In this document: piece by piece, positions 1 through 44,681 of the stretch
Numbering within the stretch: position 1 is the first letter of the stretch
Layout: each line of letters starts with the position of its first letter
Assembly (NCBI GenBank): GCA_919901555.1
Contig: CAKKPG010000132.1
Coordinates: 13,957-77,956, forward strand
Reading direction: 5' to 3'
Source of the DNA: Nitrospiria bacterium
GTDB lineage: Bacteria; Nitrospirota; UBA9217
Length of the DNA: 64,000 bases
Position numbers and translations under genes: made by a program
The notes under the pieces: generated by a model
Database searches by the model: none
What the model was told of the DNA's origin: nothing
What the model saw: only the letters and a program-made list of their open reading frames with translations

Positions 1-2148
1 CGGTTCTTTCACCACGATCACCTTGAACACGCCGGAATCCGCGAGCATGCCCTGGTTCATTGCCTTGAGGACCACGGACGCGGATACTGCGTACGGTTTT
101 GCGGCCTTGGCAACGACGGATTGGAGTGAGCCCTCGCCGGGTTTCCCTGCCTTCACCTTCCTTGCCGCAGCGGTGATGTCCTTGGCTTTCAACGCCTTTG
201 TCTTATTGACTGCCGCGGAAATATCGGAAGCGATCTCAACACCGTCCCTGGCCTCGCCGGCAGCGCTCTGCGCCTGGCCAAAGGCCTTGACCATGCCGTA
301 GGTATTCACAATGGTCCCCTGCTTTTCATACAGCGCGGCCATCGGAAGCACGAGGTCGGCCTTTTGTGCAAGGGGCGTCAGGTGGCTCGTCTGGACAATG
401 ATGAAATCCGACTTGAAATCCGAATCAGGCACATTCCCCGCGATGTAGAGCGCCTTCATGCCGGACTTCATATCGACATAGCCTTTGCCGGCCTTTTTGA
501 CCTTGGCATGTCCCGGCTCCCTGTCGGAAACGCAGCCCATCTGGATCGCGCCGAGGCTGTTCGCTTCGAGCATGAGCGGCAGAACGCCGGCGCTCCTGAG
601 CATCGCGAGGTTCAGCGCCTGGAGCGAGGCCTCCTCGTTCGCGGAAATACCCGTTCCGATGACGACCACGGGCTGCTTGGCGGCGGCGTACGCCTTGGCC
701 GCATTCGCGATCTGCTCGGCGGTAACGCCGGAACCGGATGCGGCTTGATCAACGGTCACCAGGGACTTTTTCAGCGCATCAAGCCCCTTCGCGGCCGCCG
801 CGGCGCCCTCTGCGATCGCAGCGCTCATAAGCCCTGCAAGGAGGACCGTATCGGTCCCTTCCTTGAGTTGGAGGTGGATGGCGTTCTGATGAGAAGCGAT
901 GTCCGTCTTCTCGGGATTCACCACGATCACTTTGGCCCCTGCCTGTGCCCTTCTCCGGATCATGACATCCACTTCCTGCAGGGACTGCTTCTTCTGGGAC
1001 GCATCCGAGCCGATCACCACAACGCAGTCCGCTGACTTGAGCTCGGCCTGGGAGGCGATAGTGACGCCTGCATCGCCGTAGACCGTGTGGAGGGCTGAAA
1101 TGAGGCCGCCCGCATAGGCCGATGCCGGGGTGTCGATGTTTGCGCTTCCGACCACATCACGGGCAAGGGACTGGAGGGCGAAGGCCTCTTCGTTCGTAAG
1201 CGAGCCGGAAGCAATGAAGCCCGCGTTCGCGCCGGCCTTCCTGAGGGCGTCACCCGCGATCTTTGCCGCATCGTCCCAGGTGGTCGGCACGAGCTTGCCG
1301 CCCTGCTTCTTCATGGGCGCGGTGACGCGGTTTGCGGATTTTAAGGAATCGAAGCCGAACCGGCCGATGGCGCAGATATAGCCGTTGTCTTCTTTTGCAT
1401 TCACCTTCACGATGCGGCCGTCCTTCTTGCTCACGACAACGCTGCAGCCCGATGCGCAGGCGGTACAGACCGACTCATGCTTCTCCAGGTCCCATTCCCG
1501 GCCGTGCTGCCAGCGGTCGCGCTCCATGATGGTGTTCACCGGGCAGGCATCGATGCAGGACCCGCAGAAAGTGCAGCCGGACTCGTGGAGCGGCTTGTCG
1601 AGCGCCGTCGAGACCTTGGTCGTGATGCCGCGGCCCATAAAGTCGAGCACGTTCGTACCCTGCTCCTTGCAGACCCGCACGCACCGGCCGCAGAGGATGC
1701 AGTAGTTGTTGTCGATGGTGATGAAGGGGCTCTTATCGTTCAGCTCATAATTGAAGCTCTTCCTGCCGAAGGACGATTCCTGTATCTTTAAGTCCGCGGC
1801 GTATCGCTGGAGGTCGCAAGCGCCGGCCTTGGGGCAGGTCATGCAGTCCAGGGGATGGAAGGAGAGGACCAGATCGGTCACGAATTTCCGGATCTCCTCC
1901 ACCTTCGGCGTTCTGGTCTGGACCTTCATCCCTTCCTTTGTCCGGGTGGTGCAGCCGGTGACGGGCGTCTTCATGCCCTCCACCTCCACCATGCACATGC
2001 GGCAGGCGCCCACGCCGCGCAGTTCCTTGATGTGGCAAAGGTTCGGGATGTGGACCCCCACGGCGGCGCCCGCATCCACGAGGGTCATGCCCTCGGGAAC
2101 GGACACGGCCTTCCCGTCAAATTCCATGTTCACCATCTTGGTCGTCAT
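1..2148 (-). CDS. NuoG/FdhA-like Fe-S molybdopterin-oxidoreductase-family subunit (75-kDa-subunit-like), partial; runs off the window start (C-terminus missing)
   Basis: Manual reverse translation from the ATG at 2146-2148: MTTKMVNMEFDGKAVSVPEGMTLVDAGA..CHIKELRGVGACRMCMVEV (2Fe-2S), HPLDCMTCPKAGAC (His-ligated 4Fe-4S), CILCGRCVRVC and CTFCGSCIDACP (2x 4Fe-4S), then CTACASGC..DNGYICAIGRFG (MopB N-terminal 4Fe-4S). No [FeFe]-hydrogenase H-cluster motifs seen. Not in the ORF track because it has no stop inside the window. Confidence 0.8.
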   Translation of the reverse strand, partial: MTTKMVNMEFDGKAVSVPEGMTLVDAGAAVGVHIPNLCHIKELRGVGACRMCMVEVEGMKTPVTGCTTRTKEGMKVQTRTPKVEEIRKFVTDLVLSFHPLDCMTCPKAGACDLQRYAADLKIQESSFGRKSFNYELNDKSPFITIDNNYCILCGRCVRVCKEQGTNVLDFMGRGITTKVSTALDKPLHESGCTFCGSCIDACPVNTIMERDRWQHGREWDLEKHESVCTACASGCSVVVSKKDGRIVKVNAKEDNGYICAIGRFGFDSLKSANRVTAPMKKQGGKLVPTTWDDAAKIAGDALRKAGANAGFIASGSLTNEEAFALQSLARDVVGSANIDTPASAYAGGLISALHTVYGDAGVTIASQAELKSADCVVVIGSDASQKKQSLQEVDVMIRRRAQAGAKVIVVNPEKTDIASHQNAIHLQLKEGTDTVLLAGLMSAAIAEGAAAAAKGLDALKKSLVTVDQAASGSGVTAEQIANAAKAYAAAKQPVVVIGTGISANEEASLQALNLAMLRSAGVLPLMLEANSLGAIQMGCVSDREPGHAKVKKAGKGYVDMKSGMKALYIAGNVPDSDFKSDFIIVQTSHLTPLAQKADLVLPMAALYEKQGTIVNTYGMVKAFGQAQSAAGEARDGVEIASDISAAVNKTKALKAKDITAAARKVKAGKPGEGSLQSVVAKAAKPYAVSASVVLKAMNQGMLADSGVFKVIVVKEP

Positions 2149-2158
2149 AGCAGCCTCC

Positions 2159-2245
2159 GAAAATTCTCGTACGGAATTGGAAATTTCAAATCGGAAATTG
2201 TAAATTTAAAATTTGATATTTACAATTTGCAATTTACAATGAAGT
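2159..2245. repeat. ~85% A+T tract made of repeated AAATTT / CAATTT(G/A) units, immediately upstream of the NuoG-like start codon inside a GC-rich operon
   Basis: Sequence reads ggaaatttcaaatcggaaattgtaaatttaaaatttgatatttacaatttgcaatttacaatg; flanking DNA is >60% GC. Confidence 0.6.
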
Positions 2246-2248
2246 CTT

Positions 2249-2815
2249 TTATTTGCCCGCCCCCACTACCGCCTGCTCTTCCACGATGAACACCGCGCCT
2301 ACGGGGCAGACCTTGACGCATTCGCCGCAGTGGGTGCAGCGGCGCTGCCGGATGCGGTAGGGCGTAAAGCCGGTCTTATAGGGCTCTTTCTTCTGGCCCT
2401 CGATGGCGAAGTCCTTGCACGCTTCGCGGCACTTGTCGCACATGGTGCAGAGCGTCGGGTTGATCTCGTACCTCACCAGATAGGCGCACTCGCGGCTCGT
2501 GCAGACGCCCTTGATGTGCCGTTCGAGGTCCGCTGCGTGGTCCTTCAGAAACGCCGCGAGGATGTCGGCGTGGTCCTTGCCCTTCTTGCACATGCCGCCG
2601 TCCTTCACGTCCTCGGCGATGCGCCTGAGGAGCGCAATGTGCTTCTCCTCGCCCCTGCCCGCCTGGATCGCCTCGAAGATCTTGACGGCATCGTAGATGC
2701 CGAGCTTGCAGGGGTGGCACTTGGAGCACATGCCGTTCTTGGAATCGTCGTTGTAGAAGAACTCCAGCCTGGCCTTCGTGATGCTGACCGGGCACTTACT
2801 TTCTTGCTGCGACAT
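2249..2815 (-). CDS. Small ferredoxin-like Fe-S protein (Cys-rich N-terminus plus C-terminal CxxCxxCxxxCP 4Fe-4S motif)
   Basis: 188-aa ORF with CTHCGECVKVCPVGAV plus CDKCREAC and CPVS..CSKCHPC; overlaps the NuoF-like stop by ~20 nt, so it is co-transcribed with the flanking oxidoreductase genes. Confidence 0.6.
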   Translation of the reverse strand: MSQQESKCPVSITKARLEFFYNDDSKNGMCSKCHPCKLGIYDAVKIFEAIQAGRGEEKHIALLRRIAEDVKDGGMCKKGKDHADILAAFLKDHAADLERHIKGVCTSRECAYLVRYEINPTLCTMCDKCREACKDFAIEGQKKEPYKTGFTPYRIRQRRCTHCGECVKVCPVGAVFIVEEQAVVGAGK

Positions 2816-4694
2816 GGGCCCCTCCTTTTTCGATCACGACGGCCTCCGTGGGGCAGACGCTGTAGCACGCCTTGCACTTGGTGCAGTAGTCCTGGTCGAT
2901 ATAGAACCGGTCCCTGAGCTCCACCACGGCGTCGAAGGCGCAGGCCTGCTTGCACAGGCCGCAGAGAATGCAGTGCTCGGGCAATATCCTGTACGACCCC
3001 AGCCCCTGGCAGCGCTTGGCGCGGCAGTACTTGTCGTTCACGTGCTCCTCGTATTCCTCACGGAAGTACCGGATGGTCGAGAGCACGGGGTTCGGCGCGC
3101 TGTTGCCCAGACCGCAGAGCGAGCCGGCCACGACGGCCTTGCCCAGCTTTTCGAGCCGCTCGATATCGCCTTCTTCTCCCCCGCCCGAAGTGATCTTTTC
3201 GAGCAGTTCATACATCTGCCACGTGCCGATGCGGCAGGGCGGACACTTTCCGCAGGACTCGCTCTTGGTGAAGGACAGGAAGAACTTGGCCACGTCCACC
3301 ATGCAGTCGTCCTCATCGAGGACCACCAAGCCGCCGGAGCCCATCATCGACCCTACGCCGGCAAGCGTGTCGAAGTCAACCTTCATATCGAGGAACTGGG
3401 CAGGGATACAGCCGCCCGAAGGGCCGCCGGTCTGGACCGCCTTGAACTGCCTTTCGGGGTTCAGCATGCCGCCGCCGATGTCGAAGATGATCTCCCGGAG
3501 CGTGATGCCCATGGGCACCTCGATGAGCCCCGTGTTCTTGATTTTTCCCGTAAGGGCGAAGACCTTGGTACCCTTTGATTTTTCCGTCCCGATCTTCGTA
3601 TAGTAGTCCAGGCCCTTCGTGATGATCGTCGGAACGTTTGCAAAGGTCTCGACGTTGTTGAGGTTCGTCGGCATGTTCCAGAGGCCGCCCGCCGCTTCGG
3701 AGAGACGCGGAGGACGGGGACGCGGCATGCCGCGCTCGCCCTCGAGGGAGGCCACGAGCGCCGTGGACTCGCCGCACACGAAGGCGCCGGCGCCTTCCTT
3801 GATCTCCACGGTGAAATCGAGGCCGCTGCCCAGGATGTTCCTGCCCAGGAGCCCCATGGCCTCGGCCTGCTTGATGGCGACGCCGAGGTTCTTCACGGCA
3901 AGGGGATACTCATGCCGCACGTAGATATAGCCGTATTGCGCGCCGATGGCATAGGCATTGATGAGCATGCCCTCGAGCACGGAGTGGGGGTCGCCTTCCA
4001 TGACCGAGCGGTCCATGAACGCGCCCGGATCGCCCTCGTCGCCGTTGCAGACGACGGCCTTGATTTTGGCGCCCGATTTTTTGGTGTGCTCCCACTTGAG
4101 CCCGGCAGGGAAGCCCGCGCCGCCGCGGCCGCGGAGGCCCGACTTCTTGACGAGCTCGATGACCTCGTCGGGCTTCATGTCGGTAATGACCTTGGCGAGG
4201 CCGGCATAGCCGTCCTCGCGGATCGCGTCGTAGATATTGCAGGGATCGACAACCCCGTTCCGGTGGAGCGCCACGCGCCGCTGCTTTTTATAGAAGGGAA
4301 TGTCCTTCATCGCGACATTCGGGTCGGACATCGGAAACTCGCGGTAGAGCTGCTTGCGGTAGGGTATGCCGCGGATCACGGAATCGGAGAACAGGCCGGA
4401 CACATCGTGCACCTTCACCTTCTGGTAAAAGATCTCCTGCGGGTCCTGGATCACGAGGGGACCGCGCTGGCAGAACCCCTGACAGCCGGTCTTCACGATC
4501 TCGAGCTTGACCTGCTTCTGCGCCGCCTCTTCCTCGAACTTCCGGATCAGCTTGTGTGAGCCCGAGGCCTGGCAGGCGGTGCCGCAGCAGACGCGGACGC
4601 GATAGGCATCGCTCTCCTTATGCTCCTTCTGGAGCTTCCGCCTCAGGGCATCCAGGTCTTTTACATTCTCCAGCCGCTTAAACGTGAGTTCCAT
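2796..4694 (-). CDS. NuoF-like NAD(H)-binding flavoprotein subunit (HndC/HydB/FdhB-type) with N-terminal thioredoxin-like 2Fe-2S domain and C-terminal 2x[4Fe-4S] ferredoxin domain
   Basis: 632 aa; GRGGAGFPAGLKW (NADH/FMN site), ESCGKCPPCRIG (4Fe-4S), C-terminal CILCGLCKQAC / CTKCKACYSVCP, N-terminal VCCGTAC..C.GFC. Confidence 0.85.
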   Translation of the reverse strand: MELTFKRLENVKDLDALRRKLQKEHKESDAYRVRVCCGTACQASGSHKLIRKFEEEAAQKQVKLEIVKTGCQGFCQRGPLVIQDPQEIFYQKVKVHDVSGLFSDSVIRGIPYRKQLYREFPMSDPNVAMKDIPFYKKQRRVALHRNGVVDPCNIYDAIREDGYAGLAKVITDMKPDEVIELVKKSGLRGRGGAGFPAGLKWEHTKKSGAKIKAVVCNGDEGDPGAFMDRSVMEGDPHSVLEGMLINAYAIGAQYGYIYVRHEYPLAVKNLGVAIKQAEAMGLLGRNILGSGLDFTVEIKEGAGAFVCGESTALVASLEGERGMPRPRPPRLSEAAGGLWNMPTNLNNVETFANVPTIITKGLDYYTKIGTEKSKGTKVFALTGKIKNTGLIEVPMGITLREIIFDIGGGMLNPERQFKAVQTGGPSGGCIPAQFLDMKVDFDTLAGVGSMMGSGGLVVLDEDDCMVDVAKFFLSFTKSESCGKCPPCRIGTWQMYELLEKITSGGGEEGDIERLEKLGKAVVAGSLCGLGNSAPNPVLSTIRYFREEYEEHVNDKYCRAKRCQGLGSYRILPEHCILCGLCKQACAFDAVVELRDRFYIDQDYCTKCKACYSVCPTEAVVIEKGGAHVAARK

Positions 4695-5166
4695 GTTCGC
4701 TCCTCACCGTGAGAATGATATCGTCCACCATTTTCGGCGTCAGCTCGCCGAAGAGCTCCTGGTCGTTCACGGTGACCACCGGCGCCAGGGCGCAGCACCC
4801 GACGCACCCCACGGTCTCAAGGGTGACGGACAGATCGGGCGTGGTCTCGCCTTCTTTGATACCCAGCTTTTGCTCCATCTCCGTGAGCACTGCCCTGGCG
4901 CCGCGCACGTGGCACGCAGTGCCCATGCAGACCTTGACGATGTTTTTGCCCCGGGGCTTGAAATGGAAGTGCTTGTAGAACGACGCCACGCCGTACACCT
5001 GCGAGAGGGAGAGCGACAGCCGGTCGGCGATCATGCCCATGGCGTCCTCGGGGAGGTAGCCGACCTTTTCCTGGACCCGCTGGAGCACGGTAATAAGGAC
5101 TCCCCGCTTACCCTCGGCATCGTCCAGAACGGTATCAATCTTTTTGACCTCTTCTTGTTGAAGCAC
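4678..5166 (-). CDS. NuoE-like 24-kDa 2Fe-2S subunit (HndA-type); start reassigned to a GTG 8 nt after a GAGGAGG Shine-Dalgarno sequence
   Basis: C-terminal part of the 262-aa ORF carries CMGTACHVRGA..CVGCCALAPV. The N-terminal 100 aa of the ORF are low-complexity and probably not translated; a GAGGAGG-N8-GTG (VLQQEEVKKIDTV) start fits. Overlaps the NuoF-like start. Confidence 0.7.
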   Translation of the reverse strand: MLQQEEVKKIDTVLDDAEGKRGVLITVLQRVQEKVGYLPEDAMGMIADRLSLSLSQVYGVASFYKHFHFKPRGKNIVKVCMGTACHVRGARAVLTEMEQKLGIKEGETTPDLSVTLETVGCVGCCALAPVVTVNDQELFGELTPKMVDDIILTVRSEHGTHV

Positions 5167-5693
5167 CGGCAACCTCCTCGATCTCGCTCCCCGGAAAAAA
5201 ACGGGATCCCGACCCCCCGGGGAATAAACAGTGTTTTTAAAGTGATGGAATGGACTTGACCGGACCAGAAAGGCTGTCAGAGCCGCAATCCCGAGCATCC
5301 GCTGCTGCCGTACGAGGCAGTCAGCAGCGTTACCGATCCACCAAAAAGCGCGCTGCCAAAATACACGGCAGGTCCGGAAATGCACTTGATTATGAAAGCG
5401 ATTGCGATTGAATATTAACCAGTAAAGATTAAAAATGCAAGCCAAAAAGTTATTAAAAATTTTCATGTAAAAATTACTATTATCTATTTCGGTAACGCCT
5501 GTTTACCGGGCCAATACATCTGCTTCTCGCCGGAATGCCCGCCATACCGCCCCGGTTCACTCATCACTTCGCCGTATCATCGCCCTTCTTCCCCTTTTTG
5601 CCCGACCGACCGCCCTCGCCCGGTCGCGGACCTTCGGGACTGACCGGCATTTTTCGCAGGGAATACCCCGGCTCGGGGCGCGGACTCGCAAAT

Positions 5694-5722
5694 TTGACAG
5701 CCTGATGCATGCCTGCTATTAT
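5694..5722 (+). promoter_or_regulatory. Sigma70-like promoter candidate for glgC (TTGACA-17 nt-TATTAT)
   Basis: ttgacagcctgatgcatgcctgctattat about 50 nt upstream of the glgC ATG; seen in sequence only. Confidence 0.4.
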
Positions 5723-5769
5723 TATATTATTCGACCACTGAAAAACCCACAACGCAGCAAGGAGACAGC

Positions 5770-7020
5770 ATGGGCATCCTGGCAATGATACTTGCGGGCG
5801 GCAAGGGAGAACGCCTCCATCCCCTCACGCTCCATCGGGCAAAGCCCGCCGTCCCCTTCGGCGGCATCTACCGGATCATCGACTTTACCCTGTCCAACTG
5901 CATCAACTCCGGCATCCGCAAGATCGCGGTCCTCACCCAGTACAAGTCCATGTCCCTGGACAAGCACCTCCGCCTCGGGTGGAACTTCTTCTCCGGCGAG
6001 TTGAACGAGTACATCATCTCCGTCCCGCCCCAGCAGCGCGTCGGGGACAAATGGTACCAGGGCACGGCCGATGCCATCTACCAGAACATCTACATGATAG
6101 AAAAGGACGCGCCGGACCATCTCATGATCCTCGCCGGCGACCACGTCTACAAGATGGACTACGCGGAGATGTTCAGGTTCCACCGCGAGCAGCGGGCCGA
6201 CGCCACCGTGGCCGCCATCGAAGTGCCCGTCGCGCAGGCCTCTGCCTTCGGGATCATCGAGGTAGAGGAGGACTGCCGGATCATCGGCTTCGAGGAAAAG
6301 CCAAAAAAGCCGAAGTCCATCCCGGGCAGGCCGGACATGGCGTTCGCGTCCATGGGCATCTACCTCTTCAACACCCGGAAGATACTGGAACACCTCCGGT
6401 TCGACGCCCTCAGGGACACGTCCCATGACTTCGGCAGGAACATCATCCCCGAGATGATGAAGACCGCCCGTGTCTGCGCCTACAACTTCATCGACGAGAA
6501 CAGGAAGGCGGCAAAGTACTGGCGGGACGTGGGGACCATCGACGCCTACTGGGAGGCGAACCGGGACCTGGTGAGCGTGGACCCGCTCCTGAACCTCTAC
6601 GACCGGGCCTGGCCGATCCGCACCTACCAGGCGCAGAACCCGCCGGCCAAGTTCGTCTTCGCCCAGGAGAAGAAGGGCGGCAGGCTCGGCATCGCGTTGG
6701 ACTCCATCGTGGCCCCCGGCTGCATCGTGAGCGGCGGCCGGGTGCAGAACTCGGTGCTCTCGCCCAACGTGCGCGTCAACAGCTACAGCGAGGTATATGA
6801 TTCCATCCTGATGGAGAACGTGGACATCGGCAGGCACTGCCGGATCAAGCGGGCGATCATCGACAAGGACGTCACGATCCCGCCGGGGACCGAGATCGGC
6901 TACGACCTCGACGAAGACCGTACGCGGTTCCATGTCACTCCATCGGGGATCGTGGTGATCGGGAAAGGGACCGAGCTGTGCGAGAGCGAGATGGAGCTGA
7001 CCGACGAACCCGCGGCGTGA
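5770..7020 (+). CDS. glgC: Glucose-1-phosphate adenylyltransferase
   Basis: 416 aa, MILAGGKGERLHPLT... N-terminus (E. coli GlgC LAGGRGTRLKDLT-like), left-handed beta-helix C-terminus; overall length and motif fit. Confidence 0.9.
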   Translation: MGILAMILAGGKGERLHPLTLHRAKPAVPFGGIYRIIDFTLSNCINSGIRKIAVLTQYKSMSLDKHLRLGWNFFSGELNEYIISVPPQQRVGDKWYQGTADAIYQNIYMIEKDAPDHLMILAGDHVYKMDYAEMFRFHREQRADATVAAIEVPVAQASAFGIIEVEEDCRIIGFEEKPKKPKSIPGRPDMAFASMGIYLFNTRKILEHLRFDALRDTSHDFGRNIIPEMMKTARVCAYNFIDENRKAAKYWRDVGTIDAYWEANRDLVSVDPLLNLYDRAWPIRTYQAQNPPAKFVFAQEKKGGRLGIALDSIVAPGCIVSGGRVQNSVLSPNVRVNSYSEVYDSILMENVDIGRHCRIKRAIIDKDVTIPPGTEIGYDLDEDRTRFHVTPSGIVVIGKGTELCESEMELTDEPAA

Positions 7021-7092
7021 ACAAAAATTCATGATATACCGCCGAGGACGCCGAGTTGATAAAATCAAATGAAACAGGTTTTCTCTGCGGGT

Positions 7093-7388
7093 AACATTGA
7101 TGGTCTCGTAAAAAGTCGTCATACCCGCGAAAGCGGGTATCCAGAGTCCAGTCAACCATCTGAAAAAACTGGATTCCCGTTTTCACGGGAATGACGAAAA
7201 AGGGCGGTTACGGACTTTTTACGAGACCACCAACATTGATTCATTCGTAAAAAGTTCTAAAAGCCGTCTTTGCGAGCGAAGCGAAGCAATCTCGCAGTTC
7301 ATAACCGCCTGAAAAATCGAGATTGCCGCGTCGCTCCGCTCCTCGCAATGACGGCATAAGGGGCTTTTTACGAGACCATCACATTCAA
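7093..7388. repeat. Two adjacent MITE-like palindromic elements (7093-7241 and 7242-7388) with terminal inverted repeats TGGTCTCGTAAAAAGTC / GACTTTTTACGAGACC and internal hairpins
   Basis: Left and right ends are reverse complements. Internal hairpins acccgcgaaagcgggt and ttcccgttttcacgggaa. The same TIR recurs at 50926-51058. The element abuts the nitroreductase stop codon. Confidence 0.75.
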
Positions 7389-8011
7389 CCGATCACCCTC
7401 ACGATCTCTTCCAGCGGTTTTCTGCTCCTCGCCGGCGGGTCCTCATCGGGCGCCCCCACGGGCAGGAGCGCGGCGATGTACTTTTCCTTGCCGTAGCCCA
7501 ATAACTTCTCAAAGGCCTCCTGCGCCACCAGCGGCCCCGTCATCCAGCAGGACCCGTAGCCGAGGGCGTGGATCGCCAGAAGCATGTTCTGGATCGCCGC
7601 TGAAACGCTCTGCAAACCCGGATGAGGACGGAGACGCACGGCTTCTTCCTCGCTATATCCCATCCTCATCAGTAGGCCAGTTGACACGTATGATTCCATA
7701 ACAACGGCGATCACGACCGGAGCGTTCTCGAAGAAAACATAATAATTACTCTTATATGCCGTCAGCCGCTGGGCCTGTTTCTCGCTCTCGGCATAGGGGA
7801 CCATCCGGTCCACCATCTCCCGGACAGCCTCGGCCATCTTCTTGAGAAGCGCACGGTCTTTGATGACAATAAAACTCCACGGCTGGGCATTGTTTGCGCT
7901 CGGCGCAAGCCTCCCGGCATCTAGGATTTTCCTGATGTCCTCGTCAGGAACCGGCGTCTGCTTGAACCGGCGAATACTTTTTCTGCCCTTGATAGCGTCA
8001 AAGAGGTCCAT
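7385..8011 (-). CDS. Nitroreductase-family (NAD(P)H-flavin oxidoreductase) protein
   Basis: 208 aa; MDLFDAIKGRKSIRRFKQTPVPDEDIRKILDAGRLAPSANNAQPWSFIVI is a classic nitroreductase N-terminus. Confidence 0.85.
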   Translation of the reverse strand: MDLFDAIKGRKSIRRFKQTPVPDEDIRKILDAGRLAPSANNAQPWSFIVIKDRALLKKMAEAVREMVDRMVPYAESEKQAQRLTAYKSNYYVFFENAPVVIAVVMESYVSTGLLMRMGYSEEEAVRLRPHPGLQSVSAAIQNMLLAIHALGYGSCWMTGPLVAQEAFEKLLGYGKEKYIAALLPVGAPDEDPPARSRKPLEEIVRVIG

Positions 8012-8293
8012 AGTTTATCTCACCTTCCCGATCGGGAACCCCATGCCGCTGATCGATATTGTAGGATATTGCGCCCTTTTAAAGACCTTCTCCGCAAGCG
8101 CCGGCACTTCATTATCCACGAAAAGAATATCTCACACAATCCCTAACCCGGACAAGCCGGAATTGAAAATTGAAAATTGCAAAATTGCGGTAAAAATCAA
8201 GACATTAAAGAAATATTCTTTCCATTTTTTGAGAAGAATTTGATTTTTTAGTAACTAACTCATTCCATTTTCTCCCATTATCCAGGGCCTACG

Positions 8294-8632
8294 CTAAAAC
8301 AGGCTCATTATCACGCTTATAACAACGGAGATGATAATCAACGCGATCACGATCATGGCTATCATCATCATCCAGTGCGGACCGAATCTCACACCCTGAG
8401 GCTCTGCGGGCTCAGGCGAGATCGCCTTGTCGATTCGGGCGAAAAATTCGGACTTGGACGCGAGCAGTCGTATCAGCGCGAAGGCAGGGAGCACGCTGAA
8501 TAAAAGACCGAAAGCCGCGAAGAGCCATGCGCCGCTGGATTGCTGCGCGTTGACCGCAAGAGAGACCAGGTAAAAGCAGAACGCGGCTATTGCCGCGGAT
8601 AGCCCGGCGAACATCAGATAGAAAAACGACAT
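8294..8632 (-). CDS. Small hypothetical membrane protein (3-4 TM); start moved to MSFFYLMFAGL
   Basis: Hydrophobic segments; the upstream part of the 196-aa ORF overlaps the 340-aa gene and is unlikely to be translated. Confidence 0.45.
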   Translation of the reverse strand: MSFFYLMFAGLSAAIAAFCFYLVSLAVNAQQSSGAWLFAAFGLLFSVLPAFALIRLLASKSEFFARIDKAISPEPAEPQGVRFGPHWMMMIAMIVIALIIISVVISVIMSLF

Positions 8633-8687
8633 CTTCTTCACGAGAGCCTCCTTCCAGGATGAACGACAACCGTTTGCATGGAGCTTC

Positions 8688-9710
8688 TTATCGGCGGAAC
8701 TGGGAATTGAACACCGCCTCGATATGCGCGTAACGCTCCCGCAGCCGGGCCTCTTCCTTCCCGAGCCCCAGCGACCCGGCCAGTCCGATGGCCCTGGACA
8801 GATGGCCGAGCGCATCATCCCTGTCGTCCTTGGGATAGCTCGATTCGTACATCCTGTCGTATGCCTGCTCGGCCCGTTCAGCATGCTGTCGCAGTTCGCC
8901 CACCAGGGCCAGGTCGTGATGCTCCCCGATCAGGTCGCTCTCCCGGGCGCTTCGCGGCGTGCTGATGCAGTCATGGACAAACGGTTTGTTCCCGCCGGAA
9001 GCCGCCGGGCTGATAATGGCAAAATCGTAGTTATGTTCATGCCCAGCCTCCCGGATCACACCGGCAAGCTGATGGAGAGACACCGGGATCTCGAGCCTGA
9101 GTCCATCGTCGGACAGGTCGGCAATTACCGCGTCCAGGTCAATGCCGAGCGTACCGATGAGTACCGGATACACCTCGGTCAGCCCAAGCAGGAACGCCCT
9201 GAAAAGGGGCAGATCGCTCTCCTGGTTCAGAGGTTTGTCCCTGCGCCAGCTCACGCCCTGAATCGTGGACAAGTCAAAGGCGAAACTGATCAGCACCAGT
9301 TCCCCGGACGACAATTCGTGCAGGAAGAGCCTTGCGTCTCTCTTTCCTGCCAAATCCAGCCGGAGATCCAACGACAGAGCCCGGTACGTTTTGTTAGGAT
9401 AAACAGGATCGGGTATCCCCTCTTCGTAATCGTCTATCTGATGCTGGAATTCCCTGTCCGGCGCAGCTATTTCCACTCCAGAGGGAATGTTCAGCAGCTC
9501 CCTGAGGAAACTCTGGATAAAATAGCTGCGGTTGGGGGGGCCTGGCAGAACCCGTGGCGCGGCGATTTCCGATGCTGAAGGACTGCTACGCAATGCGCTG
9601 AGGAGCTGCTCGTTCAATTCTCCTTCGTAAGAACTGCTCGACAGGAGGATGCTCGCCATATAGCAGGTTTTGTACTGGGAGGCAGGCGCCCTGTCTTCTT
9701 GTTCTTGCAT
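8688..9710 (-). CDS. Hypothetical protein (340 aa), ~110 nt downstream of the WD40-caspase gene, same strand
   Basis: Long ORF in GC-rich DNA with no recognisable motif; operon context only. Confidence 0.5.
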   Translation of the reverse strand: MQEQEDRAPASQYKTCYMASILLSSSSYEGELNEQLLSALRSSPSASEIAAPRVLPGPPNRSYFIQSFLRELLNIPSGVEIAAPDREFQHQIDDYEEGIPDPVYPNKTYRALSLDLRLDLAGKRDARLFLHELSSGELVLISFAFDLSTIQGVSWRRDKPLNQESDLPLFRAFLLGLTEVYPVLIGTLGIDLDAVIADLSDDGLRLEIPVSLHQLAGVIREAGHEHNYDFAIISPAASGGNKPFVHDCISTPRSARESDLIGEHHDLALVGELRQHAERAEQAYDRMYESSYPKDDRDDALGHLSRAIGLAGSLGLGKEEARLRERYAHIEAVFNSQFRR

Positions 9711-9819
9711 GGTTATTGTGAGCTCCCCCGATGATCCCGGATCACGATTGCAGCGAGCCCTGCTTGTTTCGCGGCAGCGTATAGTCGCTGATCTTTTTCA
9801 ATGGAGGCATCCTCCTGCG

Positions 9820-12800
9820 TTATTGCACCTTCCCGATCGGGAAGTTCGCGCCGGTCTGGATCGTCGGCGTCTGCTGACGCTTGAAGACCTCTTCGGACAG
9901 CTTCGTCACCTGCTCTTCCACGTAGTCCGCGAGGCCCAGCACGGTGATGAACCCGTCCTTCTTGATGTCCGCCTTGCCCCGGAGCCCTTCCATCAACACA
10001 TAGGTGAAGAGACCATGCCCCTTGTACCCTTCGAGCGCCTGCTGGGTGTCGGATGATGCGGAAAAGACCGCGGAGCCGATGGCCCGCTGGAGAAGCTTCA
10101 CTGCTGTTGATTCCGTGAGCCCCCTCGTCTGCTGCAAGAGCGCGATCTGGAGTTCCTTGCCGCCCTTGCCTGCATTGCAGGTGTCGAGGATCACGACCTT
10201 CTTCTGGGCGGGAATGTTCCCGATGAGCTTGGCAAGATCCTTCTGCCCCATGGCGTCTTCGCCGATGTGCCGGGAGGACAGAAGAAGGACATTGCTCGTG
10301 AGCAGGAAATACTGTTCTTCGTTGTTCACCACGTCCACCACTCCGTGGGAGGCGTCGTAGAATACAAAGAGGTCGTTGGGCTTGATCTTCAGGCGAAGCT
10401 CTTCAAAGGCCTTGGTGATGGCCTCTTTGGTCGTCGCATCTGGCGTCGTGAGTATCCGAATATCGGTTTTCTCAAACAAAGGCGCCGCGGTCTTCTTCAA
10501 GGTCTCTGCAAATGCCGCAGCATCAGGCACGGCATAGGTCAGCGATATGGACTTATTCTTGTATTCGTTGATGCCTATGACAAGGGCGTAGAGGTCCGGC
10601 TTCCGGAGAAGCGCTTTGGAGATGACGGAAATCTTCGCCGGGTTCGACTCCATGGAATTCTCTTTGTTGAAAGCGACAGCCCTGATCTCGTTCTGCCCTT
10701 CTATGAGAGGAATGGTAAAGGAGAGGAGCTTCTCATTTGCCGTTTCCCTGCCTTTTACAATCACCCCTCTCGTCTCATTCGCCACCTGGGCGCCGTTGAG
10801 ATAGATATTCACATTTCCGATCCCGCCGCCGTTATCGATGATCTTCAAGGAAACGGTGATGCTGTCCTTGTCAATAATTTCTCCTGCAACGGGTGATACG
10901 ATCCAGACCGCGGGGGCCGGCTTTTTGACCAGGATATCGCCGAAGGTCTCGCCTTTAGGAACTTCCTTGCCGGCCAGGGCCAGTTGAACAAGCTCGGGGC
11001 GGTAGAACCTGGCATAGAACTGGTCTATGCTGTAGACATTATTGCCGATCCTTACGTTAAGGTTTTTTGCGCCGTTGGGAGAGGCATTGAAGTAGCCTTC
11101 CGGGGTAATGACGATCCATTCTCCATCGTCAAATGTAATCATCCGACAAAGTTCACTGCCCGTTGCCGCGTTCCAGATGATGCTTGCCCCTCCCCCGCCC
11201 GTAAGCGCATATCTGCCGTCAGGGCCGTAGGCTACTGAGAGGACGAAATCCGCACTCCCCTTGACCTTAAGTGTCCTGATCACCTTTCCCGTTGAGATGT
11301 CCCAAATCCTGGCAGTACCATCAAAACTCCCGGAAAACACATGCCTGCCGTCAGGGCTGAAAGATACGGATCGCACGATTCCGGCATGCCCCTTGAACGT
11401 CCGCACCTCTTTGCCCGAAGACACGTCCCAGAGCTTAAGGGTATTGTCGCCGCTTCCCGACAGCACAAAGCGGCCATCGGGGCTGAAGGCCGCGGAGTAA
11501 ACACCATCTGAATGACCCTGAAACGTCCTTATCTCCCTGCCCGTGGACACGTCCCAAAGCTTAAGGGTTTTATCATGACTTCCGGACAGTGCAAAGCGGC
11601 CATCGGGGCTGAAGACCGCAGATGAGATATGATTTGAGTGCCCCTTGAGTGTTTTCACCTCATTCCCGGTGGAAACATCCCAAAGCTTCAGAGTAGGATC
11701 ATCAAGCCGACCACCGGTCAGCACATATTTACCGTCAGGGCTGAAGGCGACTGCTTCGACATAGCTTTTAAGCCCAAGAAAAATCCGTGTCTCCTCGCCG
11801 GTAGAGATGTCCCAAATCTTGGGAGCTAAACTGCTTGCAGACAGCGCGTACCTGCCGTCGGGGCTGAAGTATGCAGAGAGCATCGCCTCATATCTGTGCC
11901 CAGTAATTGAATACTTATATCCTTTAAGCTTTCGCACTTCTTTGCCGGCTACTATGTCCCAAAGCACTATCTTGCTTGCATAGGTTGCGGACAGTACGTT
12001 TCTGCCGTCAGGGCTGAAGGAAACCGATGAAACGCCGCTTGCCTGTCCCCGGAACGTCCGCAGTTCCTCTCCTGTCGACAGGTCCCACAGTTTAATGGTA
12101 TGATCGAAACTCCCGGAGAGCGCATATCTGCCGTCAGGGCTGAAAGAAACTGATGAAATCCCGTTCTCATGCCCCTTCCCCTTGAACGACTGCATCTCAT
12201 TTCCGGTAGAAACATTCCAAAGCTTCAGTAGTGGTGTATAATCATCATTCCGACCACCGATCAGCGCATATTTACCGTCGGGGCTGAAAACGACTGCGTT
12301 GACGCCGCCATGCCCAAGAAACCTCCGTGTCTCCACGCCGGCTGCAACGTCCCACAACCTGGCGGTTTTATCCTTACTCCCGGAAAGCGCAAATCTGCCG
12401 TCGGGGCTGAAAGAAACTGCCTTGACCTCATCTGAATGCCCCGAAAACGTCTTAATAGATGTTCCTGTACGCACGTCCCACAGCTTGATGGTTTTATCAC
12501 TGCTTCCCGTCAGCGCGAATTTACCGTCGGGGCTGAACGTTACGGCTGTAACATCATTTATATGCCCTTTCAGTGTTCTTACCAGCATCCCCGTTGAAAC
12601 ATTCCACAGCCTGACGGTAGTGTCCCAGCTTCCCGACAGCGCGAATTTGCCGTCGGGGCTGAAGGATACGGATATGACCGAGTCGACATGTCCGCCGAGT
12701 GTCCGCACGGCTCTGCCGTTTGACACGTCCCACAGTATGAGCGTTTTATCTGAACTCCCGGAGAGCGCATATCTCCCATCGGGACTGAAGGTTGCAGAAT

Positions 12801-13110
12801 TTACCCAATCTGAGTGCCCGTGTAACGTCCGAATCTCCCTGCCCGTAGACACGTCCCAAAGCTTCAGCGTTTTGTCCCAACTCCCGGACAAGGCATACCT
12901 GCCGTCCGGACTGAAGGCTACGGAGCTGACAAATCCTGAATGCCCCATCTGCACAAAGACTTCCGGCCCCTGATTTATGCGCTCCGGGGCGGGCTTTTCA
13001 CCGGCATACGCCGTGTTTCCGGGCAGGGAAATGCAGGCCATCATTATGGCCAAGGACCATATGATAATTGCTCTCTTTTGGAATAATCGCATCGAGCGAA
13101 ACATGATCAT
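9820..13110 (-). CDS. Secreted WD40-repeat protein (~14 blades, two predicted 7-bladed propellers) with C-terminal caspase-like peptidase C14 domain
   Basis: 1096 aa; N-terminal signal peptide ([31 protein letters not shown]); ~14 repeats of FSPDGR(Y/F)[23 protein letters not shown]; C-terminal 300 aa [13 protein letters not shown]...YDASHG...[10 protein letters not shown] (caspase His/Cys dyad context). Nucleotide-level tandem repeats show up as the shadow ORF 12299..12973. Confidence 0.85.
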
Positions 13111-13974
13111 CTCCCGGTTTTCACAACCACCTTGTCCTCAAAGAACTCCGAGGCTGCTGCGGAGGCGTTCTTGCTGTCCGTCTTTTCCGCCAGCTTGATC
13201 CCTCTCGTCTTCATCCCAATGTCGCGCGTCTGTGTCTTCACCTGATATACCCCGCCCTGGGCTTCGGTGCTGATCTCTCCAAGAGGCGATGAGCTCGCAT
13301 ACACGATGACGTTTTCTTCACCAAAGGGCGGGCTTACTTCCAGATCGAACTTGTCGTTCCCTGCAGGGATCTCGTAGACCGACCCGCCGTTGAAATAATT
13401 CTCCGCGCGATACGGATTGGGCAAAAGCTGGAGCGTCTCACCGCTCGCATCCTTATACAGAACACGGGCATAAAAGGGCTTGTTTCCCCTGATGTAGACC
13501 TTGATCTTCTCTCCGGTCTTATATTCCTTCTTGTCCGTCCAGGCCTTGACCTTTAAGGGGGCTGACGGGTCGTCGCTGAACCGGGTGTCCCTTGACAGGG
13601 TCTCCATTGCCTTTACATCGGGGATGATCTCCGCCTTGATCTTTATCTTGCAGCAATCGCCTGATGAGGGGTCCTTGTACCAGGACTTATCCAGCTCCTG
13701 GATGATCTTCACCTCTGCGTTTGCATATGCTGAAAGAAGGTCCTTCTCAAGCTCGAAGTTCTTGACGTGCGTTTCGCTTTTGATGTAGGTCGACGCGAAC
13801 TCGACGGCCCTTTTCTTGGCGTCGGCAAGGGCCGCCTGCTCGGTCTGCTTCCTGGACTTGTCATCCCCCATGCATGCATTACCGTCGGCTTCGGTGATGG
13901 TGGATTGCGCGGCATAGGCTGGCGTAAAGAGAACCAGAAACATGAGCACGATCAACGGAATAGGGGATTTCATA
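13107..13974 (-). CDS. Secreted/lipoprotein with DUF4384-like C-terminal domain (a domain family usually fused to or adjacent to bacterial caspases); 4-nt ATGA overlap with the WD40-caspase gene
   Basis: Signal peptide [21 protein letters not shown] preceded by GGAGG; C-terminal [42 protein letters not shown] resembles DUF4384. Start chosen at the internal ATG with SD rather than the ORF-track start at 14042. Confidence 0.6.
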
Positions 13975-14325
13975 CAGGACCTCCTCAAGAGTATGGCCGT
14001 ATTGTCAAGAATTAACCACAGAGCACACAGAGAAATCATCAAAACTCAAAATGTTGAAGGCTCTTTACCGGCCTCCCCCTCTGTGTCCTCTTACTACAGC
14101 ATTTATTTCGTTTTCTGCATTCTTCACATTTCCAAAAAAGGTCTTATTATCATGTCGGTTGAGAACACTGAGCACACCTCCGTGCTCTCTGTGGTTTCAT
14201 GCTGTGCCTCTCTTTTTTCATGAAACTTTTGACACTACCAGTATGGTGCTCATGGTGTTCTCGTAGAGCGCGCGAGCTGTAGTGAGACAAGTATTACAGA
14301 AGGGTCTGTTGGACGTCAAGGGAAG

Positions 14326-14540
14326 ATTCGCTGGGGGCGCATGGGGCATGGAGCATAGGGCATGGGGCATGGGGCATAGAGTAGATTCTCTTCCCTCTTC
14401 ACTCTTCACTCTTCCCTCTTCCCTCTTCCCTCTTACCTCTTCCCTCTGCTCTCTTCCCTCTGCTCTCTTCCCTCTGCGCTCTGCGCTCTTCCCTCTTCCC
14501 TCTTCCCTCTTCCCTCTTCCCTCTTCCCTCTGCGCTTTTC
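14326..14540. repeat. Compound simple-sequence repeat: (GCATGGGG/GCATAGGG)x~5 followed by (CTCTTCC)n with CTCTGCG/CTCTGCT variants, ~30 units
   Basis: gcatggggcatggagcatagggcatggggcatggggcatagag ... ctcttccctcttccctcttccctcttacctcttccctctgctc... read directly. Lies between the aroG 3' end and the promoter region of the DUF4384/WD40-caspase operon. Confidence 0.85.
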
Positions 14541-15568
14541 TAAACCATCCCCGCCAAATCCCGAATAAGCTTCTCCGAGTCCTTCCACCCCAGGCAGGGG
14601 TCGGTGATGGACTTGCCGTATACGTTCTCCGTCACCTTCTGCGCCCCTTCCTCGATAAAGCTCTCGATCATGAATCCCCTGATCATGTCCTTGAGCAGGG
14701 CGGAATGCCGGCGGCTCTGCATCACTTCCATGGCGATACGGGGCTGTTCGGCGAACTTCTTGTCGGAGTTGGCGTGGTTCGTGTCAACGATGATGGTGGG
14801 GTTGGCCAGACACCGCTTCTTGTATGCCTCGGCAAACCAGATGAGATCTTCATAATGATAGTTCGGGACCGTCACGCCGTGCGGATCAACGGCGCCCCGC
14901 AGCACCGCGTGGGTGAGGGGGTTGCCGGCGGTCTTCACTTCCCACCGGTTGTAGCTGAAGGTATGGGGCGCCTGGGAGGCCTGGATGGAATTGAGCGTCA
15001 CTTCCCTGTCGCCCGAGGTCGGATTTTTCATGCCCACGGGAATGTCCAGTCCGCTGCACGTGAGGCGATGGGCCTGGTTCTCCACGGAGCGGGCGCCCAC
15101 GGCCACGTAGCTCAGCACGTCCTCGAGATAGGGATAGTTCCCGGGGTAGAGCATCTCGTCGGCCGCGGGAAGGTATGATTCCTTGAGCGCGCGGATGTGC
15201 ATTTTCCTGATGGCCTTGAGGCCCTCGACGATGTTCGGCTCTTCCTGGGGATTGGGCTGATGGGCCATGCCCTTGTACCCGATGCCCGTGGTGCGCGGCT
15301 TGTTGGTGTAGATGCGCGGGATGATGATGATCGTGTCCTTTACCTCCGCCTGGACCTTCGCCAGCCGGGAAATATAGTCGCACACGGCGTCTTCGTCATG
15401 GGCCGAGCAGGGCCCGATGACGAGCAGGAACTTTCCGCTCTCGCGGGTAAACACGCCCTTGATGTCAAGATCGCGCTTTTTCTTGATCTCGACCAGGTCC
15501 TGGGAAAGCGGCATGGCCCCAAGGATTTCCTTGGGTTTCGGGATCTCCCGGATATATTCAAAGCTCAT
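14540..15568 (-). CDS. aroG: 3-deoxy-7-phosphoheptulonate (DAHP) synthase, class I-alpha
   Basis: 342 aa; VIGPCSAHDEDA, PRTTGIGYKGM, GARSVENQAHRL, TNHANSDK align motif-for-motif with E. coli AroG. Confidence 0.9.
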   Translation of the reverse strand: MSFEYIREIPKPKEILGAMPLSQDLVEIKKKRDLDIKGVFTRESGKFLLVIGPCSAHDEDAVCDYISRLAKVQAEVKDTIIIIPRIYTNKPRTTGIGYKGMAHQPNPQEEPNIVEGLKAIRKMHIRALKESYLPAADEMLYPGNYPYLEDVLSYVAVGARSVENQAHRLTCSGLDIPVGMKNPTSGDREVTLNSIQASQAPHTFSYNRWEVKTAGNPLTHAVLRGAVDPHGVTVPNYHYEDLIWFAEAYKKRCLANPTIIVDTNHANSDKKFAEQPRIAMEVMQSRRHSALLKDMIRGFMIESFIEEGAQKVTENVYGKSITDPCLGWKDSEKLIRDLAGMV

Positions 15569-15829
15569 AGGTTTTTGAAGCCTCCTTCACGCTGCATGGT
15601 TGTGCTCGAGAGTGGTATGCAGTATAAAATCCAAGGGAGCGCAAGTCAAGCCCAAAAGCGGGAGCGGGAGAAGTGAAAGCGCTGTCGGACACCAAGGGCT
15701 CTTCCCCTTGCGGGGCAAATCTCGGCACGCCCTGCGCAACGGTGAACAGGATGCCTGTCGGCATATCGGCGGATTTCCGCCAAAAAATCACTGGTTTTTT
15801 TTCCGGTAATATTGTATAAAGGTCGTGCC

Positions 15830-16729
15830 ATGGCCAAAAGAAAATCAAAGAAGGGCAGCCGGTATGACCAATGGATCGCCGCGGGGATCGTCATAACCCT
15901 GGCGGCCATCGTGCTCTATCTGTGGGGGCCGCTGCACACCTTCAAGGGGGCCAGGGAGGAAAAACGTCAGCCGGAGATAAAGAAGCTGGTGCCGCCTCCG
16001 AAACGCAGGCTTGCCCAGGAGCGGAAAGAGGCTGAGAAGCACAAACCCGCGGGCGCGGAAAAGGCCGCCGTCATCGCCGTGGTGATCGACGACCTGGGCC
16101 AGGATCTGATGCCTGCCCGCGAACTCCTCGCGCTGCCCTACAAGATCACCCTTGCCGTCATGCCCGGACTGCCCCAGTCGAAAAAGATCGCCGAGCTGGC
16201 AAAGCAGAGCGATCGCGAGGTCCTGCTCCACCTGCCCATGGAGCCGAAAAACCGGAACGGTAAGCGCGAGGCCTTCGGCACGCTGCGCTCGGACATGACG
16301 CCCATGGAATTCATGGCCGCCATCAGCGCGGACATTGATGCCGTGCCCGGCGCCGCGGGGGTGAACAACCACGAAGGCTCGGCATTGACCGAAAACAGCG
16401 AGGCCATGAAGTTCCTCATGGCGGAGCTGAAGGCACGCGGCCTCTTCTTCCTCGACAGCCTCACCAATCCCCGGAGCATTGCCTATTCCACGGCAAAGGA
16501 CTTCGGGCTGAAAGCCGCAAAGCGGGATGTCTTCATCGACAATGAGAGCAACAGTCCCGCCGCCATAGGGGCCCAGCTCGACGAGCTCGCGCGCATTGCC
16601 AGGAAACGCGGCTCAGCCATCGGGATAGGGCACCCTCACCCGGCCACCATGAGCGAGCTGAAGAAATGGCTCGCAACGCTCGACGAACAGGGGATCGAGA
16701 TCGTCCCGGTGTCACGGCTGGTGAAATAA
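15830..16729 (+). CDS. Divergent polysaccharide deacetylase family protein (YibQ-like) with N-terminal TM anchor
   Basis: MAKRKSKK..TM..; HLPMEP...NNHEGS...GIGHPHP motif pattern of divergent polysaccharide deacetylases; first ATG at 15830 (ORF track starts at a TTG 18 nt earlier). Confidence 0.7.
   Translation: MAKRKSKKGSRYDQWIAAGIVITLAAIVLYLWGPLHTFKGAREEKRQPEIKKLVPPPKRRLAQERKEAEKHKPAGAEKAAVIAVVIDDLGQDLMPARELLALPYKITLAVMPGLPQSKKIAELAKQSDREVLLHLPMEPKNRNGKREAFGTLRSDMTPMEFMAAISADIDAVPGAAGVNNHEGSALTENSEAMKFLMAELKARGLFFLDSLTNPRSIAYSTAKDFGLKAAKRDVFIDNESNSPAAIGAQLDELARIARKRGSAIGIGHPHPATMSELKKWLATLDEQGIEIVPVSRLVK

Positions 16730-43613: not shown

Positions 43614-44681
<1,068 letters not shown>

Follow-up and report, generated by a model that had tools for sequence, protein, structure and literature searches.

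Heptanucleotides are reported to be the most abundant class of long simple sequence repeats (SSRs) in most bacterial genomes, a finding credited to polymerase slippage (Mrazek 2007, summarised in PMC4679880 and PMC4692102). In Xanthomonas and Nostoc, heptamer SSRs with the units GGGAATC and GGGGA(T/C)T are intergenic, lie near the ends of open reading frames (ORFs) and differ among relatives in length and sequence at a given intergenic site (Rehm et al. 2015, PMC4692102). These G-rich arrays reach up to 26 units, sometimes occur as inverted pairs and form G-quadruplexes (G4s) in vitro; their preferred position is 'downstream on the coding strand', and no regulatory role was found for them (PMC4692102). 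In Haemophilus influenzae, hmw1A carries (ATCTTTC)9-28 together with a complementary G-rich arm, and its expression falls in inverse proportion to the number of copies; as part of the transcribed 5′ untranslated region (5′-UTR), the array forms a long hairpin that is cut by RNase III (PMC12721329, PMC2424069). Cyanobacterial intergenic tandem repeats include the short tandemly repeated repetitive (STRR) heptamers of Calothrix PCC 7601 (cited in PMC4692102). Sets of TAACTGA repeats, known from Beggiatoaceae, Cyanobacteria and Bacteroidetes, are found mostly just upstream of start codons (PMC4679880). Here we analyzed a long heptamer tract located directly 3′ of the aroG gene, and upstream of a DUF4384/WD40-caspase operon, in a 64-kb stretch (hereafter the window) of contig CAKKPG010000132.1 from a Nitrospiria bacterium (assembly GCA_919901555.1).

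The tract resembles each of these systems in part. As in the long intergenic heptanucleotide SSRs of other bacteria, its 7-nt units run head to tail, it is intergenic and variable among relatives, and its period is the dominant one among long SSRs; with 21 units, the array next to aroG lies at the long end of the range. Like the Xanthomonas and Nostoc repeats, it has a G3-4N3-4 unit of 7 nt, is intergenic and near an ORF end, and has its G-rich strand on the coding side. In contrast to them, its unit (GGGAAGA) is all purine and its G4 is predicted only; furthermore, those families consist of one unit repeated genome-wide, whereas the aroG unit occupies a single site in the window. The likeness to hmw1A and hmw2A lies in the purine/pyrimidine-biased 7-nt unit upstream of an accessory operon for an exported (here putatively exported) protein, in natural length variation, and in the pairing of a variable array with a shorter invariant block of complementary composition; unlike in hmw1A, the predicted promoter is downstream of the array and the two arms fold no better than shuffled sequences. 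The STRR and TAACTGA heptamers are likewise intergenic, often of several kinds per spacer, and present in genomes with WD40 and caspase-type genes, but their unit sequences differ, and the arrays found here and in relatives more often follow stop codons. No relevant description of heptamer repeats in Nitrospirota was found in the searchable literature.

Results

The tract consists of two heptamer arrays. All genes of interest here are on the minus strand, the gene-sense strand. Tandem Repeats Finder (TRF) and in-register parsing revealed a compound tandem repeat at 14339-14534 in which both blocks have period 7, with the order TAG-AAAAG-(GGAAGAG-type)x21-AATCTAC-(CCCCATG/CCCTATG-type)x6 in gene sense. 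The first unit of array 1 begins 5 nt past the aroG stop codon (TAG at 14540-14542), and the whole tract lies outside coding sequence, between this stop (14540) and the DUF4384 start (13973). Read on the plus strand, the units of array 1 comprise 13 CTCTTCC, 3 CTCTGCG, 2 CTCTGCT, 2 CTCTTCA and 1 CTCTTAC, and TRF reported CTCTTCC with period 7 and 20.6 copies at 14388-14531 (score 211). The six units of array 2 are GCATGGG, GCATGGA, GCATAGG, GCATGGG, GCATGGG and GCATAGA (TRF: GCATGGG, period 7, 5.6 copies at 14339-14377), which makes array 2 an inverted counterpart of array 1 that is partly complementary to it (4-5 of 7 positions). The array 1 unit is confined to this one site in the window: two consecutive units, searched as GGAAGAGGGAAGAG with at most one mismatch, gave 11 matches, all within the tract, compared to 0.02 in shuffles. 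An earlier note, made from the sequence alone, had seen here an octamer block followed by about 25 CTCTTCC heptamers with CTCTGCG and CTCTGCT variants in a deltaproteobacterial-type chromosome. The tract is real, and it does lie between the aroG stop (5 nt away) and the promoter region of the DUF4384/WD40-caspase operon (promoter-like site 20 nt away); in contrast, the first block proved by TRF period and direct parsing to be six heptamers, the parsed count of the second is 21, and the host was misplaced. A deltaproteobacterial host was rejected because the closest aroG relatives, found in genome and metagenome collections at 83-91% amino acid identity, are loci of metagenome-assembled Nitrospirota.

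The number of units in array 1 differs between strains of the same species. Same-species contigs were retrieved with the exact DUF4384 and nitroreductase proteins and came from Hainich groundwater metagenomes (ENA ERZ12926xx, Logan ERR3858120/1); Hainich contigs carry the exact DUF4384 protein, and several are 100% identical to the window. Exact look-up of the window aroG protein returned no record, and look-ups with TsaD and a 340-aa protein retrieved contigs of which none spanned the array. Four contigs were informative, namely L164 and L165 (two independent assemblies from well H52), L161 (well H41) and L162 (run ERR3858120). In gene sense, the 21 units of the window read C G6 C2 G A G A G T G3 T2 G, with G standing for GGAAGAG, C for CGCAGAG, A for AGCAGAG, the lone T for GTAAGAG and T2 for a pair of TGAAGAG. 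L164 and L165 share an identical allele of 13 units (CGCAGAG, two GGAAGAG, two CGCAGAG and eight GGAAGAG), a count that may be a lower bound since an assembly with k=55 can only just resolve the perfect run of eight units (60 periodic nt). The contrast between six units in the first sub-run of the window and two in that of L164/L165 is secure, with variant units bracketing the sub-run. The L161 allele has 8 units, among them the private variants GGAAGCG and GGACGAG. The L162 contig begins within the array and shows at least 4 units; it has GGAAGAG in place of the two TGAAGAG of the window and is otherwise identical to it across 1.8 kb, and the same run also yielded contigs 100% identical to the window.

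Close relatives therefore differ by whole units, as their arrays directly show. Slipped-strand mispairing had led the earlier note to predict a hypermutable tract whose copy number differs between strains, and this is borne out, since public same-species assemblies with a near-identical downstream flank differ in unit number and order (21, 13, 8 and the L162 variant) and no single repeat number is common to all strains. The array is hypervariable, and its length is heterogeneous in populations. In a 16-kb alignment of the window with L164, two 28-nt (4-unit) gaps in the array were the only intergenic indels. In addition, the unit number of array 2 is constant across alleles, with a 2-base change in one unit of L165, and the leader that follows shows 0-1 differences (99.7-100% identity). 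In L161, the island is 100% identical to the window outside the array, but the first 53 nt of the contig, aligned to window 14540-14590, show an aroG 3′ end that has diverged (~7 differences in 45 nt) and terminates in another stop codon; either lineages have recombined at the array, or the start of this contig is chimeric.

An array between housekeeping-type genes varies in the same way. As a control we took the second-longest array of the window, (TAGACAG)n, which is flanked by asd and a NapC/NirT-type cytochrome gene and whose first TAG doubles as the stop codon of asd. The window has 8 units of it and L170 has 4, the difference being the sole gap in a 4.6-kb alignment of 98.9% identity; at least 8 units are present in L171 (which has an N gap), L172 and L176, and 8 of the 10 public contigs end within (TAGACAG)n. 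The control array is thus as polymorphic as the aroG tract, and length variability is not peculiar to the site next to the WD40-caspase operon.

Heptamer arrays are also common in this lineage. In our own scan of the window (periods 4-12, at least 3 units), every hit had period 7. When TRF was applied to the window and 160 aroG loci (1.59 Mb), period 7 was again the commonest and accounted for 52 of ~120 arrays with at least 3 copies, compared to 15, 16 and 12 for periods 6, 8 and 9, respectively. On a crude ORF map, 45 of these 52 heptamer arrays are intergenic; approximately 17 of the 45 start no more than 13 nt after a stop codon, and approximately 7 are beside a start codon. Their units are highly diverse, and copies mostly number 3-5. 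A G3 or C3 tract occurs in ~12 of the 52, no more than expected by chance, and G4 formation is therefore not a general explanation of heptamer arrays. The view that such SSRs are unusual for a deltaproteobacterial-type chromosome does not stand, as the host belongs to the Nitrospirota and period 7 is the commonest repeat period in related loci; of the earlier interpretation as a whole, it is the hypermutability that survives.

Several other arrays were noted in passing. The window contains two AT-rich imperfect heptamer arrays that are identical in L164: one at 2175-2240 (AAATTNN), 9 nt past a stop codon and between two minus-strand genes of an iron-sulfur/NADH-dehydrogenase-like cluster, and one at 8161-8187 (CAATTTT), ~150 nt upstream of the nitroreductase start. 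Among the related loci, L030 carries (TAGGGGG)x4.9 directly 3′ of the aroG stop (7033-7066) and, at 9440-9508, (TAGGGGG)n and then (CTAATCC)n as an inverted pair; L011, L086 and L084 have other heptamer arrays downstream of aroG.

Relatives carry a shorter, two-armed version of the tract without the operon. In 12 related loci aroG directly adjoins the nitroreductase gene across a spacer of 64-219 nt, whereas in the window the two genes are 6.5 kb apart; DUF4384, WD40-caspase and two further ORFs of 340 and 115 aa thus make up an inserted island. In L001/L083, L013 and L014, CAGAGNG units stand right after the aroG stop and are followed by CCCTATGC/CCCCATGC, with the nitroreductase ATG 64-73 nt past the stop. 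The spacer reads GAG-CAGAGAG-CAGAGAG...CCCTTTGCCCTATGC in L001/L083, GAG-CAGAGGG-AAGAGGG x3...CCCTATGCGCTCTGC in L013, which holds the GGGAAGA unit of the window array in 4 copies, and CAGAGCG-CAGAGAA...CGCTTTGCCCCATGC in L014; L003 has a GCATRGN-type version in a 106-nt spacer. The island is absent from all of these loci (L001/L083, L013, L014 and L003), and, judging by these spacers, the two-armed heptamer element was present behind aroG before the operon arrived there. The two-armed spacers are predicted to form hairpins from one end of the intergenic space to the other (z -2.6, -2.7, -4.75 and -1.7), and a second hairpin type with CAAATNN / NNATTTG heptamers (z down to -5.8) is present in L005, L008, L011, L084 and L086. 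Covariation in the spacer hairpin of relatives amounted to 1 compensatory pair in 4 sequences, too few to demonstrate structural selection. Other relatives, such as L096 and L082, have different insertions at the aroG-nitroreductase site.

In the window species the predicted pairing of the two arms no longer stands out from shuffled sequence. The two arms of the tract folded no better than shuffles in four constructs or alleles (z -1.1, -1.2, -0.5 and +0.6), and these folds do not support a long hairpin between the two arrays; the test is conservative because the shuffles keep the G-rich/C-rich composition. The sense strand of array 1 has ~13 GGG tracts, and at least four tracts of G3 or longer are separated by loops of 1-7 nt. 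The (G3N4)5G3 motif within it is one of only 2 canonical G4 motifs found by a regular-expression scan of the 64 kb, and ViennaRNA, run with quadruplexes allowed, places a predicted one here in the RNA fold of minimum energy. Triplex (H-DNA) potential had also been proposed for the tract. A pure purine/pyrimidine stretch of 46 bp (14486-14531) is indeed present, but comparison of the array with its own mirror image matched 15 of 21 positions, and H-DNA is a poor fit because mirror symmetry reaches only 5 of 7. On these predictions, a G-quadruplex would fit the tract better than H-DNA. On the minus strand, no intrinsic terminator (GC-rich stem-loop plus T-run) was found at or near the tract or after aroG, and no Rfam covariance match was found in 13000-16000 apart from a chance-level microRNA match (E 0.3).

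The features of the locus are listed in Table 1. The sole promoter-like site (14319-14290) is downstream of the array, so that the array lies outside the predicted core promoter and its -35/-10 spacer; the consensus scan returned 2 sites compared to 0.7 expected, which is weak evidence. The DUF4384 start codon (13973) is 366 nt beyond the repeat, and the WD40-caspase gene overlaps or abuts the DUF4384 stop. By eye, without a predictor, signal-peptide-like N-termini were seen in DUF4384 and in the longer version of the WD40 ORF. PADLOC and NCBIfam identified no named defence system among the island proteins, which gave generic WD40/HEAT and caspase matches.

Table 1. Features at the aroG locus and the control array (window coordinates).
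Feature	Position	Strand	Description
aroFGH-type 3-deoxy-D-arabino-heptulosonate 7-phosphate (DAHP) synthase gene (aroG)	14540-15568	-	342 aa; Pfam PF00793, E 6e-46; NCBIfam TIGR00034 aroFGH, 255 bits vs cut-off 173
Array 1	14388-14534	-	21 heptamers, 13 perfect; sense consensus GGAAGAG, plus-strand CTCTTCC; length-variable part
Canonical G-quadruplex motif (predicted)	14491-14528	-	(G3N4)5G3, from a run of six perfect units
Linker	14381-14387	-	7 nt, sense AATCTAC; keeps the 7-nt register between the arrays; corresponds to the hairpin loop of relatives
Array 2	14339-14380	-	6 imperfect heptamers, sense CCCCATG/CCCTATG type, plus-strand GCATGGG
Sigma-70-like promoter candidate	14290-14319	-	TTGACG, 18 nt, TG-extended AATACT; 20 nt downstream of array 2
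Leader	13974-14338	-	365 nt, from repeat to DUF4384 start codon
DUF4384 protein gene	13107-13973	-	288 aa from ATG at 13973, GGAGG ahead; Pfam PF14326, E 8e-25; first gene of the operon
WD40-repeat gene with C-terminal caspase domain	9820-13110	-	Pfam WD40 families; PF00656 Peptidase_C14, E 1.5e-17
Nitroreductase gene	7385-8011	-	Pfam PF00881
Island	8012-14300		6.5 kb; DUF4384, WD40-caspase, 340-aa ORF, 115-aa ORF
Control array	43615-43671	-	(TAGACAG)x8, perfect; between asd and NapC/NirT-type cytochrome gene; second-longest of the window

The flanks of the array diverge very unevenly. The leader differs from that of L164 by 1 mismatch, compared to ~9-18 differences expected from the flanking aroG (2.5% diverged) and DUF4384 (4.9%), which suggests either constraint on a regulatory or 5′-UTR region or a recombination tract of its own. 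Between strains, the WD40-caspase gene stands out as a hot spot of divergence: aligned with L164 2986-6192, the gene (9820-13110) has 80% nucleotide identity over 11710-13106 and 88% over 9820-11709, and window positions 1-8687 (8.7 kb, on the nitroreductase side) are 100% identical to L164. The called lengths of the protein are 1096, 1088, 1074 and 1068 aa among strains, owing to indels that preserve the frame and partly to different start-codon calls. Inside the gene, at 11396-11695, is a 126-bp tandem repeat.

The leader itself holds an inverted repeat at 14014-14032 / 14178-14196 (CCACAGAG...CTCTGTGG). Similar intergenic inverted pairs of short tandem units were seen at 36157-36180/36470-36495 and 61026-61048/61085-61108. 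The arms of the pairs read GCCACAGAG..CACAGAG facing CTCTGTG..CTCTGTGGC, or (GCACTAAG)n facing (ACTTCGTG)n, and a CACAGAG-type hairpin is also present 3′ of aroG in L100. Inverted pairs with tandem-unit arms may be a repeat-element class of these genomes.

Discussion

The tract is of a common bacterial repeat kind and probably not a purpose-built switch. We rate the chance as somewhat better than even that it is a hypermutable heptamer SSR of generic type, derived by expansion of one arm of an ancestral aroG 3′ stem-loop, that changes by whole-unit slippage or unequal exchange, that varies largely as a by-product, and whose likeliest physical effect concerns the 3′ end of aroG or read-through. 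Its starting point would have been the two-armed element that related Nitrospirota carry just past the aroG stop, with a few G(C/A)AGAGN heptamers, a short loop and a second arm formed by a partly complementary C(C/T)CYATGC block, together probably an intercistronic aroG-nitroreductase stem-loop. In the window species, the 6.5-kb island would have entered downstream of this element, and the aroG-proximal arm would then have grown to 8-21 units, changing by blocks of whole 7-nt units through slipped-strand mispairing or unequal exchange. Most of the length variation would have little or no selective effect; any effect would probably fall on the 3′ end of aroG or on transcription running through into the island, via the purine-only, G-quadruplex-prone sense strand. 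This reading builds on what was observed: how the tract is built, where its element comes from, that its length is polymorphic and that other heptamer arrays behave alike.

Several observations weigh against a generic, largely neutral repeat. With 21 units, compared to typically 3-5, the array exceeds all others among the 52 heptamer arrays, possibly through selection for length, and a promoter-like site of an accessory operon follows closely downstream. The unusually conserved 365-nt leader beside it suggests a functional regulatory region, and the WD40-caspase gene is hypervariable (80-88%) within a backbone that is 100% identical over 8.7 kb. A divergence hot spot beside a repeat is a frequent pattern at contingency loci. 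Finally, unit counts taken from short-read assemblies can be lower bounds.

One alternative is control of the operon as a rheostat or contingency locus, in which repeat number would tune DUF4384/WD40-caspase expression via upstream promoter context or a length-dependent leader RNA structure. We regard this as unlikely, if the most serious of the alternatives. It is favoured by the length polymorphism between strains, by the end of the array 20 nt upstream of TTGACG-18-TGnAATACT, by the unusually conserved leader and by the accessory nature of an operon that relatives without the island lack, with its hypervariable WD40-caspase gene and its signal-peptide-like N-termini in DUF4384 and the longer WD40 ORF (seen by eye); furthermore, hmw1A is an experimentally tested case whose unit size and architecture match (PMC12721329, PMC2424069). 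However, the two-armed element predates the operon at this site, (TAGACAG)n between housekeeping-type genes is equally variable, and the array is outside the -35/-10 spacer. Arm pairing is weak, and an hmw-type long hairpin is not supported because the arms fold no better than shuffles in any allele. In addition, comparable heptamer SSRs have been surveyed without a regulatory role being found (PMC4692102). A graded form of this control, in which 8-21 units would set the output of a hypervariable exported WD40-caspase module through an hmw1A-like RNA or G-quadruplex effect, seems less probable again.

About equally doubtful is a selected element at the aroG 3′ end, in which the sense (GGGAAGA)n would act as a G-quadruplex or R-loop, or through pairing with the C-rich arm, to stabilise or terminate the transcript and insulate the island, with length kept above a functional minimum. 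The G-rich strand is the aroG coding strand, the array begins 5 nt past the stop, no classical terminator follows aroG, and relatives have hairpins at the equivalent position. The (G3N4)5G3 motif, one of the 2 canonical G4s in the 64 kb, and the quadruplex in the minimum-energy fold are consistent with such a role, as is the preference of the Xanthomonas and Nostoc G-rich heptamers, which form G4s in vitro, for a downstream position on the coding strand (PMC4692102). Nevertheless, only about a quarter of the sampled heptamer arrays have a G3/C3 tract, roughly as expected by chance, 2-4 units suffice in relatives, and the 2.6-fold range of allele lengths speaks against tight length selection.

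It is highly improbable that the array is a binding platform, that is, a transcribed purine array whose ~20 evenly spaced GGA/GAGG motifs titrate an RNA binder (CsrA-like, cold-shock or S1-domain) or the 30S anti-Shine-Dalgarno. Each unit does contain AGGGA and GAGG in a purine-only RNA that is unable to self-pair, and cold-shock, S1 and Csr proteins have been proposed as heptamer readers in Beggiatoaceae (PMC4679880); yet the argument is one of motifs, the window yielded no binder, and a single reader protein is unlikely because the heptamer units of the genome are so diverse. An assembly artefact, with the tract or its length arising from a misassembled low-complexity region, can practically be dismissed: although public short-read contigs often break in heptamer arrays, as in (TAGACAG)n and at the start of L162, independent assemblies of different samples recover the locus and the array structure, L164 and L165 have the same arrays, and the array can be resolved by assembly because variant units cap perfect runs at 46 nt.

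If the tract is a generic, expanded SSR, it would be a clean natural example of heptamer microsatellite change outpacing point substitution. The class of intergenic heptanucleotide SSRs is known, and this tract is a further example of it, with predicted G-quadruplex potential. For assemblers the tract is a warning, as most short-read contigs break in such arrays, and the array could mark strains when the populations of the Hainich wells are tracked. To our knowledge, documentation of SSR contingency control is almost confined to host-adapted pathogens. If unit number does tune the WD40-caspase operon, SSR rheostats would extend from these pathogens to free-living environmental bacteria.

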